Positions 16,227-24,801 of a stretch of DNA of 64,000 nucleotides are shown in pieces. Numbering within the stretch: the first letter of the stretch is position 1; each line of letters opens with the position of its first letter. The DNA is from a bacterium (GTDB lineage: Bacteria > RBG-13-61-14 > DATKZS01): assembly GCA_035527835.1 (NCBI GenBank), contig DATKZS010000109.1, forward strand, positions 819 through 64,818, given 5' to 3'. The notes beneath the pieces are model-generated. The model had not been told where the DNA came from. It made no database searches and worked only from the letters and a program-made list of their open reading frames with translations. A program made the position numbers and the translations under genes.

Positions 16227-17159
16227 ATGGGTAAGGCAAATAAGCAAAAGCCCGATAGCAAGGCAAAGGCTGGATGTTTTAGGTATCCTCTAATTGTTAT
16301 TATTGCCTTCTTTATCTATGCCCCTCCTGTTTGTGTGAGCAAGTCTCAAAACCATATATTCGTAGATGGTCCTTCTGATCTTTATGATATCCATAGCCTG
16401 GCTCGGAGAGGCAAGACCCCTCTTGTCATTATCTACACCCTATTTAGTCCCAAATTGGTGAATTCGATTGATGATGGTAAGACCCCTCTCCATCTAGCAG
16501 CGGCAAACGGCCATACTTTCATGGTTCACTATTTGGTTTGGATAAAGGCTGACGTAAACAATAGGGGTCGAACCACGCCGCTAGAAGAAGCTCTCATCAG
16601 CGCCGCCAATATTAATCGCGCCAACCGCATTGCAAAGTATCTTATTGATCATGGATCTAAAATAAATCCTAAATCGGGTAGAGCGCCATTAAGCGTTGCT
16701 GTTTCCTATTGTAATACAGAAATGGCAAGCTATCTAATTGATAAAGGGGCGGATGTCAATTATGGCTCTCCGATTCTGCTCGCTACTCGTTGTGATGGTA
16801 ACATGTTAAAACTACTTGTGGATCATGGAGCAAATATTAACGCACGTTATAGGGATGGGAGGACTTTCCTGCACCAATTGGTTCTTGAAATGCCGAGTCC
16901 TCGATATGAACTCTTTCCTATACTTGCCGAAAATGGGATTGATCTCAATGCACAGGACGAACAAGGAAATACCTTTGTTCATTTGGCAGTTAATAAGGGA
17001 GATATAAAATTTATAGAACTTGCCATTGAGTATGGCGCTGCTGTGAATATCAATAATAATGAAGGAAAATCTCCTCTTGACCTAGCATTGGAAAAACCCA
17101 AGTATAAGATAACTGAGATTATAATTAACCAGCTGATAAATGAAGCTTCCATAAAATAG
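16227..17159 (+). CDS. ankyrin-repeat protein with N-terminal signal/TM segment (low-GC island)
   Basis: Ankyrin motifs GKTPLHLAAANGH...LV are repeated several times. The region is AT-rich relative to its flanks, and a GGAGGG Shine-Dalgarno precedes the start. Confidence 0.8.
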   Translation: MGKANKQKPDSKAKAGCFRYPLIVIIAFFIYAPPVCVSKSQNHIFVDGPSDLYDIHSLARRGKTPLVIIYTLFSPKLVNSIDDGKTPLHLAAANGHTFMVHYLVWIKADVNNRGRTTPLEEALISAANINRANRIAKYLIDHGSKINPKSGRAPLSVAVSYCNTEMASYLIDKGADVNYGSPILLATRCDGNMLKLLVDHGANINARYRDGRTFLHQLVLEMPSPRYELFPILAENGIDLNAQDEQGNTFVHLAVNKGDIKFIELAIEYGAAVNINNNEGKSPLDLALEKPKYKITEIIINQLINEASIK

Positions 17160-17231
17160 CGCGTTATTTTCTTAAATTCCGTAAATTCCGGGGACACAAT
17201 ACCTAACCAGCCCCATCTTCTCATCTTCACC

Positions 17232-17392
17232 TCATCGCCCGGTCAATTGCTCCATTTTTTCGGGATAGCGGGTGCCTTGGACGGTGATCTGGGAGGCGGC
17301 GGTTTGGATGTCGCGGAGGTCGGCGGAGGTGAGCTCGACCTTGACCGCTCCGATGTTCTCGTCCAGGCGCTCGAGTTTGGGGCGTGACGGGT
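17232..17392 (-). pseudogene. 3' remnant of an aldo/keto reductase gene
   Basis: Minus-strand translation gives ...PKLERLDENIGAVKVELTSADLRDIQTAASQITVQGTRYPEKMEQLTGR* — the typical AKR C-terminus (the preceding 5' codons run into the arm of the hairpin element at 17389). The 5' three-quarters of the gene is missing and its place is taken by the hairpin element at 17389. Confidence 0.55.
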
Positions 17393-19537: not shown

Positions 19538-20584
19538 TTAAGGTATGGAGACGGCGGGGCCGGCGGCGGCCGGAAGGGGCTCCCCGGCGGGGGATGCGGG
19601 GTCGTCGAAGAGGGCGAGGAAGACGAGGACGTCGTGGAGATGGGCGGGTCCGTGGCCGAAGTCCACGCCGCGGGCTTGATGCTCGACCCTGACCTGCCAT
19701 CCGTCCTCGATGGCGGCGCGGGCCAGGGCGGCGGCGCGCCGGACCGCGGCCTCCCGCAGCGGCTCCGGGGACTCCGGACGGGGCGCGGACAGGTTGAGGG
19801 CGATGCGGAGCTTGCGCTCCTCCTCGCTCTCCCGGACGCGGACCATGAGGCCGCCGGTGCGGGCCGAGGTCTTCCAGTGGATGTCCTTGACCGGATCTCC
19901 CCGCGTGTACTGGCGGAACCCGAAGAGCTGGTCGCCGCGGCCGGCCTTGTGCACGGGCCGCTCTTCGCCACGCGCCGCGATCTGGTCGCGGTCCACCTCG
20001 CTGGAATCGGCGCGGGGCAGGGCGATGAGCCCGCCTTCGAGCGGCACTCGTTTCCTTTTGTCGAACCATCCGAAGGGCGCGGTGGTGGAGATGGTCATGT
20101 CGTGGAAGCGGATCCGGCCGCGCTCTGGGGCGATGGCGGACGCCTTGATCACCGTTTCCTTGCCCGCGCCGACGAAGGCGGCGATTGCCATGAGCTCCAC
20201 GCTGCCGAGCGATTCATTGACGCACACCGCAAATGAAGGGATGAGCTTTTTTTCATTCTTGAAGCGGTAAGTGACGCGGAAGCTGACGCCGGCGGTGACG
20301 AACTCGGGGGCGGCGCGTTCCACCCGCACCTGGGCGATTACGTACTCCGAGACCATGAAAGAGGCGAGCATGGCGGCGAGCATCATGGAAAGCACGAGGT
20401 AGAGGAGGTTATTGCCGGTGTTGAAGGCGGCGCCGGCCACGGCCACGATCAGGAAGAGGAAGGCGAATCCGGGCCGGGTGATGCGGACGCGGCGGTTCAA
20501 CAGCCAGTCGGGGAAGAAGATGCGGCGGAGCAGGGGCAGCATTTTATTCAACCGCGGAGGCGCGGAGGACGCAGAGGAAGACAT
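19538..20584 (-). CDS. DUF58 domain protein (vWA-like, MoxR-partner type)
   Basis: Two N-terminal TM helices and the DUF58 signature FGFRQYTRGDPVKDIHWKTSAR are present. Confidence 0.7.
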   Translation of the reverse strand: MSSSASSAPPRLNKMLPLLRRIFFPDWLLNRRVRITRPGFAFLFLIVAVAGAAFNTGNNLLYLVLSMMLAAMLASFMVSEYVIAQVRVERAAPEFVTAGVSFRVTYRFKNEKKLIPSFAVCVNESLGSVELMAIAAFVGAGKETVIKASAIAPERGRIRFHDMTISTTAPFGWFDKRKRVPLEGGLIALPRADSSEVDRDQIAARGEERPVHKAGRGDQLFGFRQYTRGDPVKDIHWKTSARTGGLMVRVRESEEERKLRIALNLSAPRPESPEPLREAAVRRAAALARAAIEDGWQVRVEHQARGVDFGHGPAHLHDVLVFLALFDDPASPAGEPLPAAAGPAVSIP

Positions 20585-20700
20585 GATTAATTCCTGTTAT
20601 TATTGGGTTGAGACCAATTCATTCTTCCTTCATCCTTCAAACTTGATTCTTGATTCTTTCCCTATCTACTACCTACTGACTACTATCTACTACACCAACC
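20585..20700. repeat. heptanucleotide tandem tract (TCTTGAT / CTAYCTA units) running into the 3' end of the phosphoglycerate mutase gene
   Basis: Sequence ttcttgattcttgattctttccctatctactacctactgactactatctactacacc. The last 9-10 codons of the mutase ORF and its stop codon are encoded by this tract. Confidence 0.7.
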
Positions 20701-22253
20701 CCCTGCCCGTCGGCCAGCGCGCGGTAGGCCTTTTCCACGCGGTCCCAGTTGTTCTCGCGGTCGAGCGCCCAGAAGCGGCCCATGACCGTGACCACGCGGC
20801 CGAGTCCGAGCTTTTCGCAGAAGGTCTCGACGTCGTCAATGTAACGGGCGCCGGCCTCCGGCCGCTCGCCGCGGCGGCCGAGCAGTCCGTGATGATATAG
20901 CTCGGTGACGCCGCGGTCCCTGGCCATGCGCAGGATGGCGTAGAGGTGGTCCACGGAGCCGTGGCTGGAGTAGAAGCTCACGATGCCCAGCAGGTGGAGC
21001 GGCCGGCGCTCGTTGACGGAGATGTCCATGGCCCGGATGAAGGCCGGGTTCCGGGCCAGCGAGCCCGCGGAGATGGCCTGGTCAATGCGGATGCGGTCGG
21101 AGAGCACGCGGCGGCCGGCGCCGATGTGCAGGTGCCCGGCCTCGGAGTTGCCGACCTTGCCCGCGGGCATGCCCACGGCCTCGCCGTGCGCCGCGAGCGT
21201 GGTGAACGGGAATTCGCGGCGCAGCCGGTCCATGACCGGGGTGTCCGCTTTTTTAATCAGGTTGCCGTGCTCGTCATCGCGCTCGCCCCAGCCGTCGCAG
21301 ATCACGAGGAGCAACCGCCGGGCCTTGCCGGGAGGCGCGCCCAGGATCAGACTCGATCCGGTCATCTCTTGGGGCGCGGCGATGCCGAGCAGGGAGAGGA
21401 CGGTGGGCGCGACGTCGGTGAGCGCGCCGCCTTCGCGGAGCCGCACGTCCTGGAATTTTTCGTCCACGATGGCAAAAGGCACAGGTGAGTCGGTGTGCCC
21501 GGTGTCCACCTTGCCGTCCGGGTACAGCCACTTCTCGGCGGTGCCGTGGTCAGCGGTGACCACGGCGGTGACGCCGGCCATGCGCGCGGCCTCCAGCACG
21601 CGGCCGAGCTCTCGGTCCACTGCCTGGACCGCCTGGATCACCGCGGCCTCGTTCTCGATGTGGGCGACCACGTCAACGTTGGCGAAGTTCACGATGATCA
21701 CGTCGCTCCCGCCGGCCTCCATCTCCGCGATGGTCTGGTCCGCGACCTCGCCAGCCGACATGGCCGGCAGCTCGTCGTAGTTGTTCACGTCCTTCCTCGA
21801 CTCGACCACGATCCGCCTCTCGCCCTCGAACGGCCGCTCGCGCTTGCCGTTCAGGAAATAGGAGAGGTGGACGGCCTTCTCGGACTCGACCACCTTTACG
21901 ATCTTCCGCCCGGCCCCGACCACGGCCTCGCACATGGTGCCCTTGATCGCGACCTCGGGCGGGAAGGCGGCCTCGGCCGCCAGCTCCGAGTGGTACTCGA
22001 TCATGGTGAAAAAGCGCGCGAGCCGTCCGGCGGTGTCGAACTCCTGAAACGACGGGTCCACGAACGCCCGCGTCAGCTCGACCTCCCGCTCACCCCGGAT
22101 GTCGTAAAAAATCACCGGGTCGCCGTGCCCGATCCTGCCCACCGCCCTGCCCTCTCCATCCGCGAGCACCAGCGGCCTGAGCGCCTCGTCCTCCTCGCCC
22201 CGCGCATAAGCCTCACGCACGGCCTCGGCCATTACATGCAACTTGTCACTCAT
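20673..22253 (-). CDS. gpmI: 2,3-bisphosphoglycerate-independent phosphoglycerate mutase, circularly permuted relative to canonical GpmI
   Basis: The protein's first half carries the C-terminal phosphatase-domain motifs of canonical iPGM (FLNG, ADHG, GHTDSPVPF, QEMTG). After a GAPPGKAR linker, it continues with the canonical N-terminus (LLLVICDGWG, GNSEAGHLHIGAGR) and the transferase domain (SSHGSVDHL, RFWALDRENNWDRVEKAY). A strong Shine-Dalgarno (GGGAGAAG) lies at the new start. Confidence 0.75.
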   Translation of the reverse strand: MSDKLHVMAEAVREAYARGEEDEALRPLVLADGEGRAVGRIGHGDPVIFYDIRGEREVELTRAFVDPSFQEFDTAGRLARFFTMIEYHSELAAEAAFPPEVAIKGTMCEAVVGAGRKIVKVVESEKAVHLSYFLNGKRERPFEGERRIVVESRKDVNNYDELPAMSAGEVADQTIAEMEAGGSDVIIVNFANVDVVAHIENEAAVIQAVQAVDRELGRVLEAARMAGVTAVVTADHGTAEKWLYPDGKVDTGHTDSPVPFAIVDEKFQDVRLREGGALTDVAPTVLSLLGIAAPQEMTGSSLILGAPPGKARRLLLVICDGWGERDDEHGNLIKKADTPVMDRLRREFPFTTLAAHGEAVGMPAGKVGNSEAGHLHIGAGRRVLSDRIRIDQAISAGSLARNPAFIRAMDISVNERRPLHLLGIVSFYSSHGSVDHLYAILRMARDRGVTELYHHGLLGRRGERPEAGARYIDDVETFCEKLGLGRVVTVMGRFWALDRENNWDRVEKAYRALADGQGVGVVDSSQ

Positions 22254-22401
22254 GCTTCTCCCGCTCCATTCAGATTCAAGTCCGCATTGCTTAATTTAAC
22301 AGCGCCTTCCGGCATAGACAACTTTAAAATTCCGTTTGAAAAAATCCGTTGCCCCGGTGCGGAAGGTATGGTATAAATCGCGGCAAGGAGAAGGGAAGGA
22401 C

Positions 22402-23583
22402 ATGGCGCAGGTACTGGTGGGGATGAGGGTGCTGGATTTAACGCGGCTGTTGCCGGGTCCGTTCTGCACACAGATGCTGTCGGACCTGGGGGCGGAGGTT
22501 ATCAAGATCGAGGCGCCGGGGGAGGGCGATTACAGCCGGACGCTGCACACGGCGATCCGGGGGTACGGCTCGACGTTCGTGATGTTGAACCGGAACAAGA
22601 AGAGCATCACGCTGAACCTGAAGCAGCAGGCGGGGGCGGAGATCTTCCGGCGGCTCGCCGGGAGCGCGGACGTGGTGATCGAGAGCTTCCGTCCCGGCGT
22701 GGTGGACCGTCTGGGGATCGGGTACAAGAACCTGAAGCGCGACAACCGCAAGCTGATCTACTGCTCGCTCACCGGGTTCGGCCAGGACGGGCCTTACGCG
22801 CAGCGGGCGGGTCACGACATCAATTACCTTTCCTATTCCGGGATCGGCTCGCTGACCGGTCCGCACGGCGGGCCGCCGGTTCCGCTGGGCATCCAGGCGG
22901 CGGACATCGCGGGAGGGTCGCTGATGGCGGCGTTCGCGGTGATGGCGGCGCTGTACCAGCGTTCGCAGACGGGACGCGGCCAGTACATTGACGTGTCCAT
23001 GTTGGATGGGCTCTTGGCGGTGGGGCAGACGCTGTTCGGCGAATATTTCTCGACGGGCAAGGCGCCGGGTCCGGGGACCATGCGGCTCTCCGGCGGCTAC
23101 CCGGTGTACGGGATTTACGAGACCAGGGACGGCAAGCACTTCGCCCTCGGCGCGCTCGAGCCCAAGTTCTGGGAGACGTTCTGCAAGAAGGCCGGGCGGC
23201 CGGACCTGATCCTGCTGCACCAGTCCGCGCGGGACCAGGATAGCGAGAAGCTGGAAAAGGAGCTCAAGGCGCTGTTCAAGAAGAAGACGCGGGCGGAATG
23301 GTCTGCGCTTCTGGAGGGGGAGGACGCGTGCGCTTCTCCGGTGCTGACGCTGGACGAGGTGATGGACGACCCGCACCTCAAGCACCGGGGCATGTTCGTG
23401 ACCGGCCCGCACCCGGAGGAGGGAGAGGTCACCCAGGTCGCGTTCCCGATCAAATTCTCCGACATCACGCCCGAAAAGCCCGGGCCCGCGCCCAAGCTCG
23501 GGCAGCACACCGAGGAGATCCTGCTCTCGGTCGGCTACTCCAAAAAAGAGATCGAGGGATTCAAGAAGGACGGAGTGATCTGA
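22402..23583 (+). CDS. CoA-transferase family III (CaiB/BaiF-like)
   Basis: Motif LDLTRLLPGPFCTQMLSDLGAEVIKIE is present. An AGGAGAAGGGAAGGA Shine-Dalgarno precedes the MAQV start. The longer ORF from 22336 lacks a ribosome-binding site. Confidence 0.8.
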   Translation: MAQVLVGMRVLDLTRLLPGPFCTQMLSDLGAEVIKIEAPGEGDYSRTLHTAIRGYGSTFVMLNRNKKSITLNLKQQAGAEIFRRLAGSADVVIESFRPGVVDRLGIGYKNLKRDNRKLIYCSLTGFGQDGPYAQRAGHDINYLSYSGIGSLTGPHGGPPVPLGIQAADIAGGSLMAAFAVMAALYQRSQTGRGQYIDVSMLDGLLAVGQTLFGEYFSTGKAPGPGTMRLSGGYPVYGIYETRDGKHFALGALEPKFWETFCKKAGRPDLILLHQSARDQDSEKLEKELKALFKKKTRAEWSALLEGEDACASPVLTLDEVMDDPHLKHRGMFVTGPHPEEGEVTQVAFPIKFSDITPEKPGPAPKLGQHTEEILLSVGYSKKEIEGFKKDGVI

Positions 23584-23625: not shown

Positions 23626-24801
23626 ATGGGTGATAAACATATTCATGTAAGCAAAAAGGGCGTGCCCTACTATCTGGTGCAAAAAACGAGGAAGGGGAAA
23701 AAGAGCTACCTCTGCGTGCCGCGGCCGCCGGATGGTCCTGATTTCGTGGTGCTGGAGGCCGTGCCCGAGGGCTATGAGATTTGCGAGACGCGCGGCAAGG
23801 TGAATTGCCTGCCCATTGCGGTCGAGGGCATCCCGGCGGAGGACGTGGAGAAGGTGAAGGCGGAGCTTGCCAGGCACGAGGCCTTTGAGGGCTGCCGGAT
23901 GGAAATTACTCAGGACCAGATCGTGGTCCACCTCTACCTGCTGAATCCCTTCCTGAAGAATCTGATGCAGGAAAGCCGCGAGGTTGCCGGCCTGCCCCCC
24001 CTCACGCCGCAAGAGTTCGAGGCGATAAAGCGGGAGGCGGGCCCGTCCCAGTTTTACATGCCCTTCCTGCGCTTTACGCTCCAGGACCGGAGAAGGCTGG
24101 ATTATGTGGCCGAGGGCTTCGCGGCCGGAGACAGGGGAGACGATGAACCGGATTGGGAATTCGTGGATTTCGGCAAGATCGGACGGATTTCGCGACAACT
24201 CATCGAGGAATTTCTCGCCGATATGCATTCAGCTCCGGCCATTGGGGCGCTGGATCCGGGGCCGGAGGCCAAGTCCTCGGGGCGGCGCCGGAGAAAACGC
24301 CCGCGCCGCAAGAAAGGAGAGAAGGCCAGGATTTACACGCTGAAGGTCGAACTGGAATCGGGGTACATCGTGGACAAAAAATATGGGGGTCATGAAATTT
24401 CCCGAACCATCCAGATCCTTGGCGATCAGTCCCTGCAGGATCTGCACGAAATAATTTTCGACGCCTTCGAGCGGGAGGATGAGCACCTTTATGAGTTCTT
24501 CTTCGGAAAGCGGCCTTATGGCAGAAAGAACCGGGTCTACGCCCATCCCTTCAGCCTGGAAGATAGCCCGTTCGGACCGGAGCCGAATATCGTGGGAACG
24601 GTTGATGAAACCTGGATTGACGACCTGAACCTCCGGCCCCGCCAGACCTTCGGTTACCTCTTCGACTACGGCGACGACTGGGTGCACCGGATCAGGGTGG
24701 AGAAGATCGAGGAAGCGGCCCCGGAAGGCGATTACCCGCGTATCACCGCGGCCGTGGGCGAGGCCCCGCCGCAGTATCCGTTCGATGATGACGAAGATTA
24801 G
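23626..24801 (+). CDS. hypothetical protein with C-terminal pRiA4b ORF-3-like domain
   Basis: The C-terminal IYTLKVELES...QSLQDLHEIIFDAF...HLYEFFFG matches the conserved pattern of the plasmid pRiA4b ORF-3 family. An Arg/Lys-rich linker is present. Confidence 0.5.
   Translation: MGDKHIHVSKKGVPYYLVQKTRKGKKSYLCVPRPPDGPDFVVLEAVPEGYEICETRGKVNCLPIAVEGIPAEDVEKVKAELARHEAFEGCRMEITQDQIVVHLYLLNPFLKNLMQESREVAGLPPLTPQEFEAIKREAGPSQFYMPFLRFTLQDRRRLDYVAEGFAAGDRGDDEPDWEFVDFGKIGRISRQLIEEFLADMHSAPAIGALDPGPEAKSSGRRRRKRPRRKKGEKARIYTLKVELESGYIVDKKYGGHEISRTIQILGDQSLQDLHEIIFDAFEREDEHLYEFFFGKRPYGRKNRVYAHPFSLEDSPFGPEPNIVGTVDETWIDDLNLRPRQTFGYLFDYGDDWVHRIRVEKIEEAAPEGDYPRITAAVGEAPPQYPFDDDED

Follow-up and report, generated by a model that had tools for sequence, protein, structure and literature searches.

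A gene in a 64,000-nucleotide stretch of bacterial DNA (contig DATKZS010000109.1, positions 819 to 64,818; hereafter the window) raises the question of how an intact enzyme comes to be encoded with its two halves exchanged, and whether such a gene is a recent accident or part of an older family. Its product is a homologue of cofactor-independent phosphoglycerate mutase (iPGM), a textbook two-domain enzyme that is a target for both anti-parasite and antibacterial drugs. Here, we demonstrate that this protein (the query) is a clean circular permutant of canonical iPGM (GpmI), cut in a loop of the transferase domain after the WDRVEKAY helix. We put at about 0.8 the probability that it is a functional member of an old and widespread clade of permuted iPGM homologues, called group A below. 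The interest of the locus lies in enzyme evolution and annotation, and not in a unique event generated by a repeat.

Chain order and predicted fold

The query gene is intact and is the sole long sensible open reading frame at the coordinates examined. Its parts are given below, with residues of the canonical enzyme numbered as in B. stearothermophilus (Bst) iPGM (PDB 1EJJ).

20673..22253, minus strand: coding sequence of the circularly permuted iPGM homologue, 526 aa, identical to NCBI HUT53811.1 ('alkaline phosphatase family protein')
22258..22262, minus strand: GGGAG, a Shine-Dalgarno-like motif 4 nt 5' of the ATG, read from the sequence
22227..22253, minus strand: new N-terminal head, residues 1-9 (MSDKLHVMA), with the pattern M..KLHVMAE.VR.AY kept family-wide
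21342..22226, minus strand: residues 10-304, equivalent to canonical iPGM 218-510 (phmmer, tblastn)
21315..21341, minus strand: linker of 9 residues, 305-313 (GAPPGKARR), from the old C-terminus to the old N-terminus
20697..21314, minus strand: residues 314-519, equivalent to canonical iPGM 6-211 (phmmer, tblastn)
21144..21146, minus strand: codon of Ser370, the predicted phospho-serine nucleophile (Bst Ser62), in GNSEAGH
20673..20696, minus strand: C-terminal tail, residues 520-526 (GVVDSSQ), and TAG stop

Comparison with PDB chains by phmmer (E 2e-117) aligned query residues 10-304 with 1EJJ 218-510 and residues 314-519 with 1EJJ 6-211, and tblastn placed the canonical C half on the window at 22226->21342 and the N half at 21308->20700. 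The canonical chain runs phosphatase (1-76), transferase (77-310), phosphatase (311-511), whereas the query reads 218-510, linker, 6-211. Profile matches were split in the same manner, with PF01676 (Metalloenzyme core, 191 bits) and PF06415 (iPGM_N, 167 bits) each found in two stretches, and the iPGM equivalog model TIGR01307 reached 460.8 bits against a cutoff of 330.65 when summed over two out-of-order stretches. NF003897 gave 397 bits, below its cutoff of 862. A preliminary description of this DNA, made from the sequence alone, had proposed the swapped halves, the joining of QEMTG in frame to LLLVICDGWG through a GAPPGKAR linker, new termini within the transferase domain just after WDRVEKAY and a fresh Shine-Dalgarno sequence ahead of the new start. 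The alignments bear out the order at both protein and DNA level as well as the position of the termini, the fusion point reads ...PQEMTGSSLIL-GAPPGKARR-LLLVICDGWG... as described, and the GGGAG motif stands where a ribosome-binding site was proposed.

The first long segment (residues 10-304) opens with the later portion of the transferase domain (about 10-100), continues into the C-terminal portion of the phosphatase core, and holds R53, R56, K126, D194, H198, D235, H236 and H253. The second (residues 314-519) supplies the N-terminal portion of that core, with D320, S370 and H374, and the earlier portion of the transferase domain, with H431, R461, R493 and R499, together with the family signatures SFYSSHGS (426-433) and GRRG (459-462). 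The query is ~40-44% identical to canonical GpmI (TIGR01307; 1EJJ/1O98) over each half and shares with it both Pfam domains, the serine nucleophile, the binuclear metal ligands, the Arg/His/Lys cluster and the predicted two-domain fold. ApgM (TIGR00306) and phosphopentomutase (DeoB) also have the metalloenzyme core, a Ser/Thr nucleophile and two metal ions, but their cap domain is different or smaller and there is no iPGM_N. Assignment of the query to either of these enzymes was rejected, as their models gave 39-41 bits against cutoffs of 254-320, in weak matches over residues 165-301 only.

An AlphaFold2 run with a 46-sequence family alignment gave a confident two-domain model (mean predicted local distance difference test, pLDDT, 92.9; predicted template modelling score 0.87). 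Confidence was lower only at the new termini and in a few loops, and the linker region had a pLDDT of about 93-97. According to this model and the alignments, the query has the same two domains and the same two hinges as canonical iPGM, with the chain starting and ending inside the transferase domain and the old termini of the phosphatase domain bridged by the short linker. Foldseek searches of the PDB returned iPGM structures only, each over one half (~300 residues, template modelling score 0.4-0.5), as expected when an order-dependent aligner meets a permutant, and no solved PDB structure was collinear with the query. Catalysis by iPGM depends on large hinge motions between the domains, and a natural family with a re-threaded chain is a ready-made experiment on how chain connectivity bears on folding and domain closure.

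An old family and the proposed origin of its permutation

In a 5.8-billion-protein collection, at least 119 other proteins of 517-555 aa are 56-86% identical to the query and collinear with it over 94-100% of its length, and they have in common the N-terminal head M..KLHVMAE.VR.AY..GEEDE and the end ..WDRVEKAYRAL.DG.G..V... The DNA order was permuted in 107/107 fetched loci that held both halves, and a scan with two subfamily-specific peptide patterns found at least 450 further metagenomic loci with the subfamily motif. The family was found in about ten bacterial phyla and one Heimdallarchaeota metagenome-assembled genome (MAG); named sources are Chloroflexia, Anaerolineae, Eisenbacteria, Schekmanbacteria and Planctomycetota MAGs, to which a scan of GTDB genomes adds Thermodesulfobacteriota, Armatimonadetes, Deltaproteobacteria, Cloacimonadota and the Heimdallarchaeota MAG. 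Judging from these sequences, the query is one member of a large and old permuted family found in many phyla and not a recent accident, and the permutation would long predate the lineage of the window. One 52%-identical member (L010 10001-11593) comes from a contig of 47.7 kb that was assigned to Candidatus Heimdallarchaeota, which may reflect horizontal transfer into an archaeon or a binning error.

The query comes from a MAG, and a permuted gene could be mimicked by chimerism or a wrong join in the contig, or by collapse of a tandem duplication; for one permuted sequence discussed below, P0125, which lies on a 1.5-kb contig, such an artefact is conceivable. Misassembly of the query is nevertheless rejected as extremely improbable, because NCBI, JGI/IMG, Logan and ENA each have a record of exactly this protein (HUT53811.1), which lies on two contigs, the longer of 114,635 bp, and because all of the 107 loci, from different samples and assemblers, are permuted. 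The reading frame is intact, and head, tail and linker are conserved throughout the family. Comparison with an 86%-identical homologue (L021) gave a synonymous divergence (dS) of 0.34 and a ratio of nonsynonymous to synonymous change (dN/dS) of 0.25, the latter indicating purifying selection on the query gene.

The preliminary description went further and attributed the 3' truncation to a (CTAYCTA)n tract that would have supplied the last nine residues and the stop codon. On such a reading the permutation would be recent and private to the lineage. The sequence features concerned are the following.

20662..20693, no strand: weak 7-bp periodicity (CTACCTA); Tandem Repeats Finder, 4.6 copies, 76% matches, score 36
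20585..20672, minus strand: purine-rich unstructured spacer of 88 nt from the iPGM stop to the start of the downstream DUF58 gene

The query protein terminates ...WDRVEKAYRALADGQGVGVVDSSQ*, and its tail codons are AT-rich, in contrast to the remainder of the gene. The periodicity does overlap the stop codon, as had been noted, but it is weak and takes in only 6 terminal codons rather than 9. The window and L021 agree in all of the final 21 nt of coding sequence (GTAGTAGATAGTAGTCAGTAG), in spite of the divergence between the two genes; since the tract is conserved there, it is not an unstable repeat. L001, a homologue with 70% identity, stops at the same position in ordinary GC-rich codons (..VEVADR*) with no tract, and in close relatives the tail persists at the protein level (VVDSSL and IVDSSQ, among others). 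Since L021 has the tract and L001 reaches the same terminus without it, the tract is not the cause of the truncation, and the conservation of identical termini family-wide and across phyla refutes a recent repeat-driven permutation, a scenario to which we give hardly any credence. With the same termini and junction in at least 119 homologues, the event is not private to one lineage either. On this comparative evidence, the heptanucleotide-like tract reads as ordinary conserved coding and spacer sequence with no part in the permutation.

We observed that the identity of the tail to L021 at the nucleotide level is accompanied by a largely kept purine-rich spacer (window 20585-20696 against L021 3170-3285), despite the overall dS. 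The tail and spacer had no Rfam match, the spacer folds worse than shuffled sequence (z = +1.8), and a promoter and terminator scan found nothing above chance, leaving the spacer without a terminator-like site. The spacer is probably the translation-initiation region of the DUF58 gene.

Natural circular permutants that arose by duplication, fusion and truncation include DNA methyltransferases and saposin/swaposin. A similar course would have started here from tandem duplication of a canonical gpmI-type gene; the two copies would have fused in frame, head to tail, and both ends of the fusion would have been trimmed inside the transferase-domain surface loop that follows the WDRVEKAY helix. From the MTG of the old C-terminus to the Asp of DGWG at the old N-terminus, 148 permuted proteins have a median of 20 aa (interquartile range 20-21), and the summed C-terminal tail and N-terminal head of 85 canonical iPGMs also have a median of 20 aa, as expected if tandem copies had been joined directly, head to tail and in frame. 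Taken together, the new ends are ~10 residues longer than the canonical spacing at the cut loop (36.5 vs 27), which suggests that both trimmed copies kept a little past the cut. This mechanism had been proposed from the sequence and it fits, as the linker equals the summed ancestral tails and a few extra residues stand at both new ends. The query family differs from the known permutants in that no tandem gpmI-gpmI intermediate was found among the 150 best 50%-identity representatives when all 1.84 billion were searched. Of these 150, eight are long proteins (596-5027 aa), which were considered as tandem duplicates and rejected; they are single iPGM units with unrelated extensions, seven of them canonical and one (P0155) permuted.

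Seventeen of these 150 representatives are permuted. For neighbour-joining (NJ) trees with 200 bootstraps, the permuted sequences were rotated back to canonical order and combined with 104 canonical iPGMs. Group A, formed by 16 of the 20 permuted sequences including the query subfamily, was a single clan in 199/200 bootstraps, and the query carries its features: permuted order, termini after WDRVEKAY, the S..SSHG signature and loss of Asp154. The others, P0125, P0134, P0158 and a domain inside the 5027-aa P0155, fell outside group A and are called group B; they are ~50% identical to canonical iPGMs and equally close to each other. Group B shares with group A the cut loop and the head-to-tail junction, and the comparison of the two groups raises the prospect that iPGM may have been permuted at the same loop more than once. 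In P0155 (Logan contig, 15.6 kb) the permuted unit occupies residues 3854-4374, and P0155 may be a true giant with many domains or an artefact of gene calling.

A full-text literature search found no description of a permuted iPGM, in line with the preliminary remark that none was known, nor does permutation come up in a recent survey of 338 iPGMs. The permuted family is apparently undescribed. Names of its members in databases (P0001, P0010, P0039 and others) are inconsistent, among them 'alkaline phosphatase family protein', 'sulfatase-like hydrolase/transferase', 'phosphoglycerate mutase (2,3-diphosphoglycerate-independent)' and 'iPGM'. With such annotation, metabolic reconstructions of many uncultured phyla may miss or misassign the phosphoglycerate mutase step.

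Active site and candidate reaction

Residue roles of Bst iPGM used here reportedly come from the work of Jedrzejas et al. in 2000. The nucleophile S370 (S62) is invariant in 119/119 close relatives of the query, and so are the equivalent of H66 and the six metal ligands D320, D235, H236, D194, H198 and H253, which correspond to Bst D12, D444, H445, D403, H407 and H462, respectively. The substrate contacts, which we take to be H123, R153, D154, R185, R191, R261, R264 and K336, are equally invariant except for D154. The early claim that all catalytic motifs are retained thus holds for the nucleophile and the metal ligands but fails for the HSH-like motif and for Asp154 of DGRD. Canonical SDGGVHSH has become SF[YF]SSHGS in the family (SFYSSHGS in the query), where His123 alone survives, and (F)LDGRD has become LLGRRG, with Gly152 replaced by Arg.

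Taken together, sequence and model describe an intact, selected and confidently folding iPGM homologue with complete catalytic machinery, and it is most likely an active Mn-dependent phospho-serine phosphomutase. The binuclear Mn site would be made up of D320, S370, D235 and H236 on one side and D194, H198 and H253 on the other. Phosphate would pass from the substrate to Ser370 as in iPGM, the Arg/His/Lys cluster of the transferase domain would re-orient the substrate, and the phosphate would then be returned to a neighbouring hydroxyl. As for the substrate, we lean slightly towards the interconversion of 3-phosphoglycerate (3PG) and 2-phosphoglycerate (2PG). That reaction is favoured because seven of eight substrate contacts are kept, the TIGR01307 cutoff is passed and the gene stands mostly alone in a housekeeping context, and the preference goes no further because the glycerate pocket is remodelled.

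Several results weigh against a simple reading of the query as a phosphoglycerate mutase of one old clade. Asp154 is Gly in 119/119 close relatives, so that the eighth contact is lost. Canonical iPGMs have 93 columns with a conservation of 90% or more, and group A departs from them at 11 of these, mostly next to residues for catalysis or substrate binding. Among the 11 are Asp154->Gly/Ser, Val122->Ser and positions in NFRxDR, DMVGH, ADHGN and YAMDR; within SDGGVHSH and DGRD, all of group A differs at V122 and D154 and most of it at G120, whereas group B retains the canonical residue at all 11 columns, including Asp154 of DGRD. Only 4/200 NJ bootstraps brought all permuted forms together as a monophyletic group, and simple-distance NJ cannot decide on a single origin. 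Neighbouring genes add to these points, since a gene for a Macro-domain O-acetyl-ADP-ribose deacetylase (NF001664, 212 bits) lies directly downstream on the same strand in 18 of the 83 loci with enough downstream DNA (12/45 clusters at 70% identity; median gap ~19 bp). A gene for an MSMEG_4193-like histidine-phosphatase 'putative phosphomutase' (TIGR03848, 187 bits, just under cutoff) follows the permuted gene on the same strand in 10 loci belonging to 3 clusters, overlapping its stop by 4 bp, and in 6 of them a NUDIX gene lies upstream. Distant group-A lineages (P0179/P0286 and P0146) lie in islands with GDPD and an ATP-binding cassette (ABC) transporter that includes a PhnU2-like fused permease, and group A is therefore not uniformly glycolytic. 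Examples of these arrangements are as follows.

L072 4153-4689 and L081 1674-2246, same strand as the permuted gene: Macro-domain gene
L017/L018 7353-10216 and L052 11521-12147: histidine-phosphatase cluster
L026/L027 8001-15038, L028 6073-17093 and L029: distant group-A islands (DGRS motif; GDPD, ABC permease, binding protein, LysR)

In L028, which also has the LysR regulator, two permuted paralogues flank the transporter, and these distant GDPD/ABC clusters may be organophosphate-scavenging islands. The histidine-phosphatase cluster of L017/L018 was also seen to adjoin ATP-citrate-lyase-like genes.

Such observations would suit the main alternative, a neofunctionalised permutant, in which group A, the query included, kept the phospho-serine chemistry and acts on a different phosphorylated substrate, or mainly as a phosphatase. 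The invariable loss of Asp154, the extra Arg of GRRG, the changed columns, the GDPD/ABC islands with their paralogues, the Macro, histidine-phosphatase and NUDIX neighbours and the fact that NCBI does not name these proteins iPGM all speak for it. Its settings would be organophosphate scavenging or a pathway tied to ADP-ribose or nucleotide-derived metabolites. We regard this as rather unlikely, in view of the seven invariant 3PG contacts, the invariance of every catalytic residue and the TIGR01307 score. Moreover, the GDPD/ABC context is absent from all 99 query-subfamily loci, most of which have only housekeeping neighbours. For group A, the evidence gives a tentative and doubtful picture of a distinct phosphomutase or phosphotransferase family in which permutation was followed by remodelling of the glycerate pocket, with Asp154 lost, an Arg gained and a substrate other than 3PG/2PG. 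Candidate settings for that substrate are organophosphate scavenging in the GDPD/ABC lineages and metabolism linked to Macro, NUDIX and histidine-phosphatase proteins in the query subfamily. If the remodelled pocket does mean a new substrate, the family represents an unrecognised enzyme activity.

For the mutase reading that we prefer, the context of the query subfamily is in general favourable. The commonest neighbours in the 99 loci encode an NlpD-like LysM/M23 protein (23 loci) and Pcm (18 loci), together with other housekeeping genes such as carD and ispD, and no neighbour occurs in more than 23 of the 99, which speaks against a conserved operon; the lack of a universal operon partner is as expected of a housekeeping enzyme. 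The group-B gene of P0158, which has canonical motifs, has the orientation of pgi, whose last 4 bp it overlaps (L022 6556-9626), an operon-like arrangement with a glycolytic gene which suggests that a permuted enzyme can work in glycolysis. A tblastn search with the canonical halves found no second phosphoglycerate mutase gene in the window. Among the 107 loci, roughly 20 kb each, a second complete iPGM copy was present only in L028 and a second partial copy in L029, with weak gpmA-like matches in L088, L026 and L027. The absence of another mutase gene from stretches of this size is weak evidence that the carriers lack one.

Neighbours of the query gene

The genes on either side of the query in the window are the following.

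19538..20584, minus strand: DUF58 gene, downstream, same strand, 88 nt from the iPGM stop
22336..23583, plus strand: CoA-transferase family III gene, divergent neighbour

Other neighbours in the window encode a cNMP-binding protein, LpxD, an ankyrin-repeat protein and an alkyl-sulfatase-like protein. Synteny with the DUF58 and CoA-transferase genes is limited to close relatives (L001/L005 and L021; the CoA-transferase in L001), and across the family the CoA-transferase gene is not functionally linked to the permuted iPGM. One 869-aa protein (P0023, ENA contig of 13.3 kb) consists of a permuted iPGM read through into a DUF58 domain that is 57% identical to the DUF58 protein of the window, and it may represent a fusion or a lost stop. 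The ankyrin-repeat gene (window 16227-17159, 310 aa) ends in a stretch of low GC content (0.41 at 17000-17299, surroundings ~65% GC) and may have been acquired horizontally. The CoA-transferase gene adjoins a gene (window 23626-24801) for a 391-aa protein with a C-terminal PRiA4_ORF3 domain (plasmid pRiA4b ORF-3-like).

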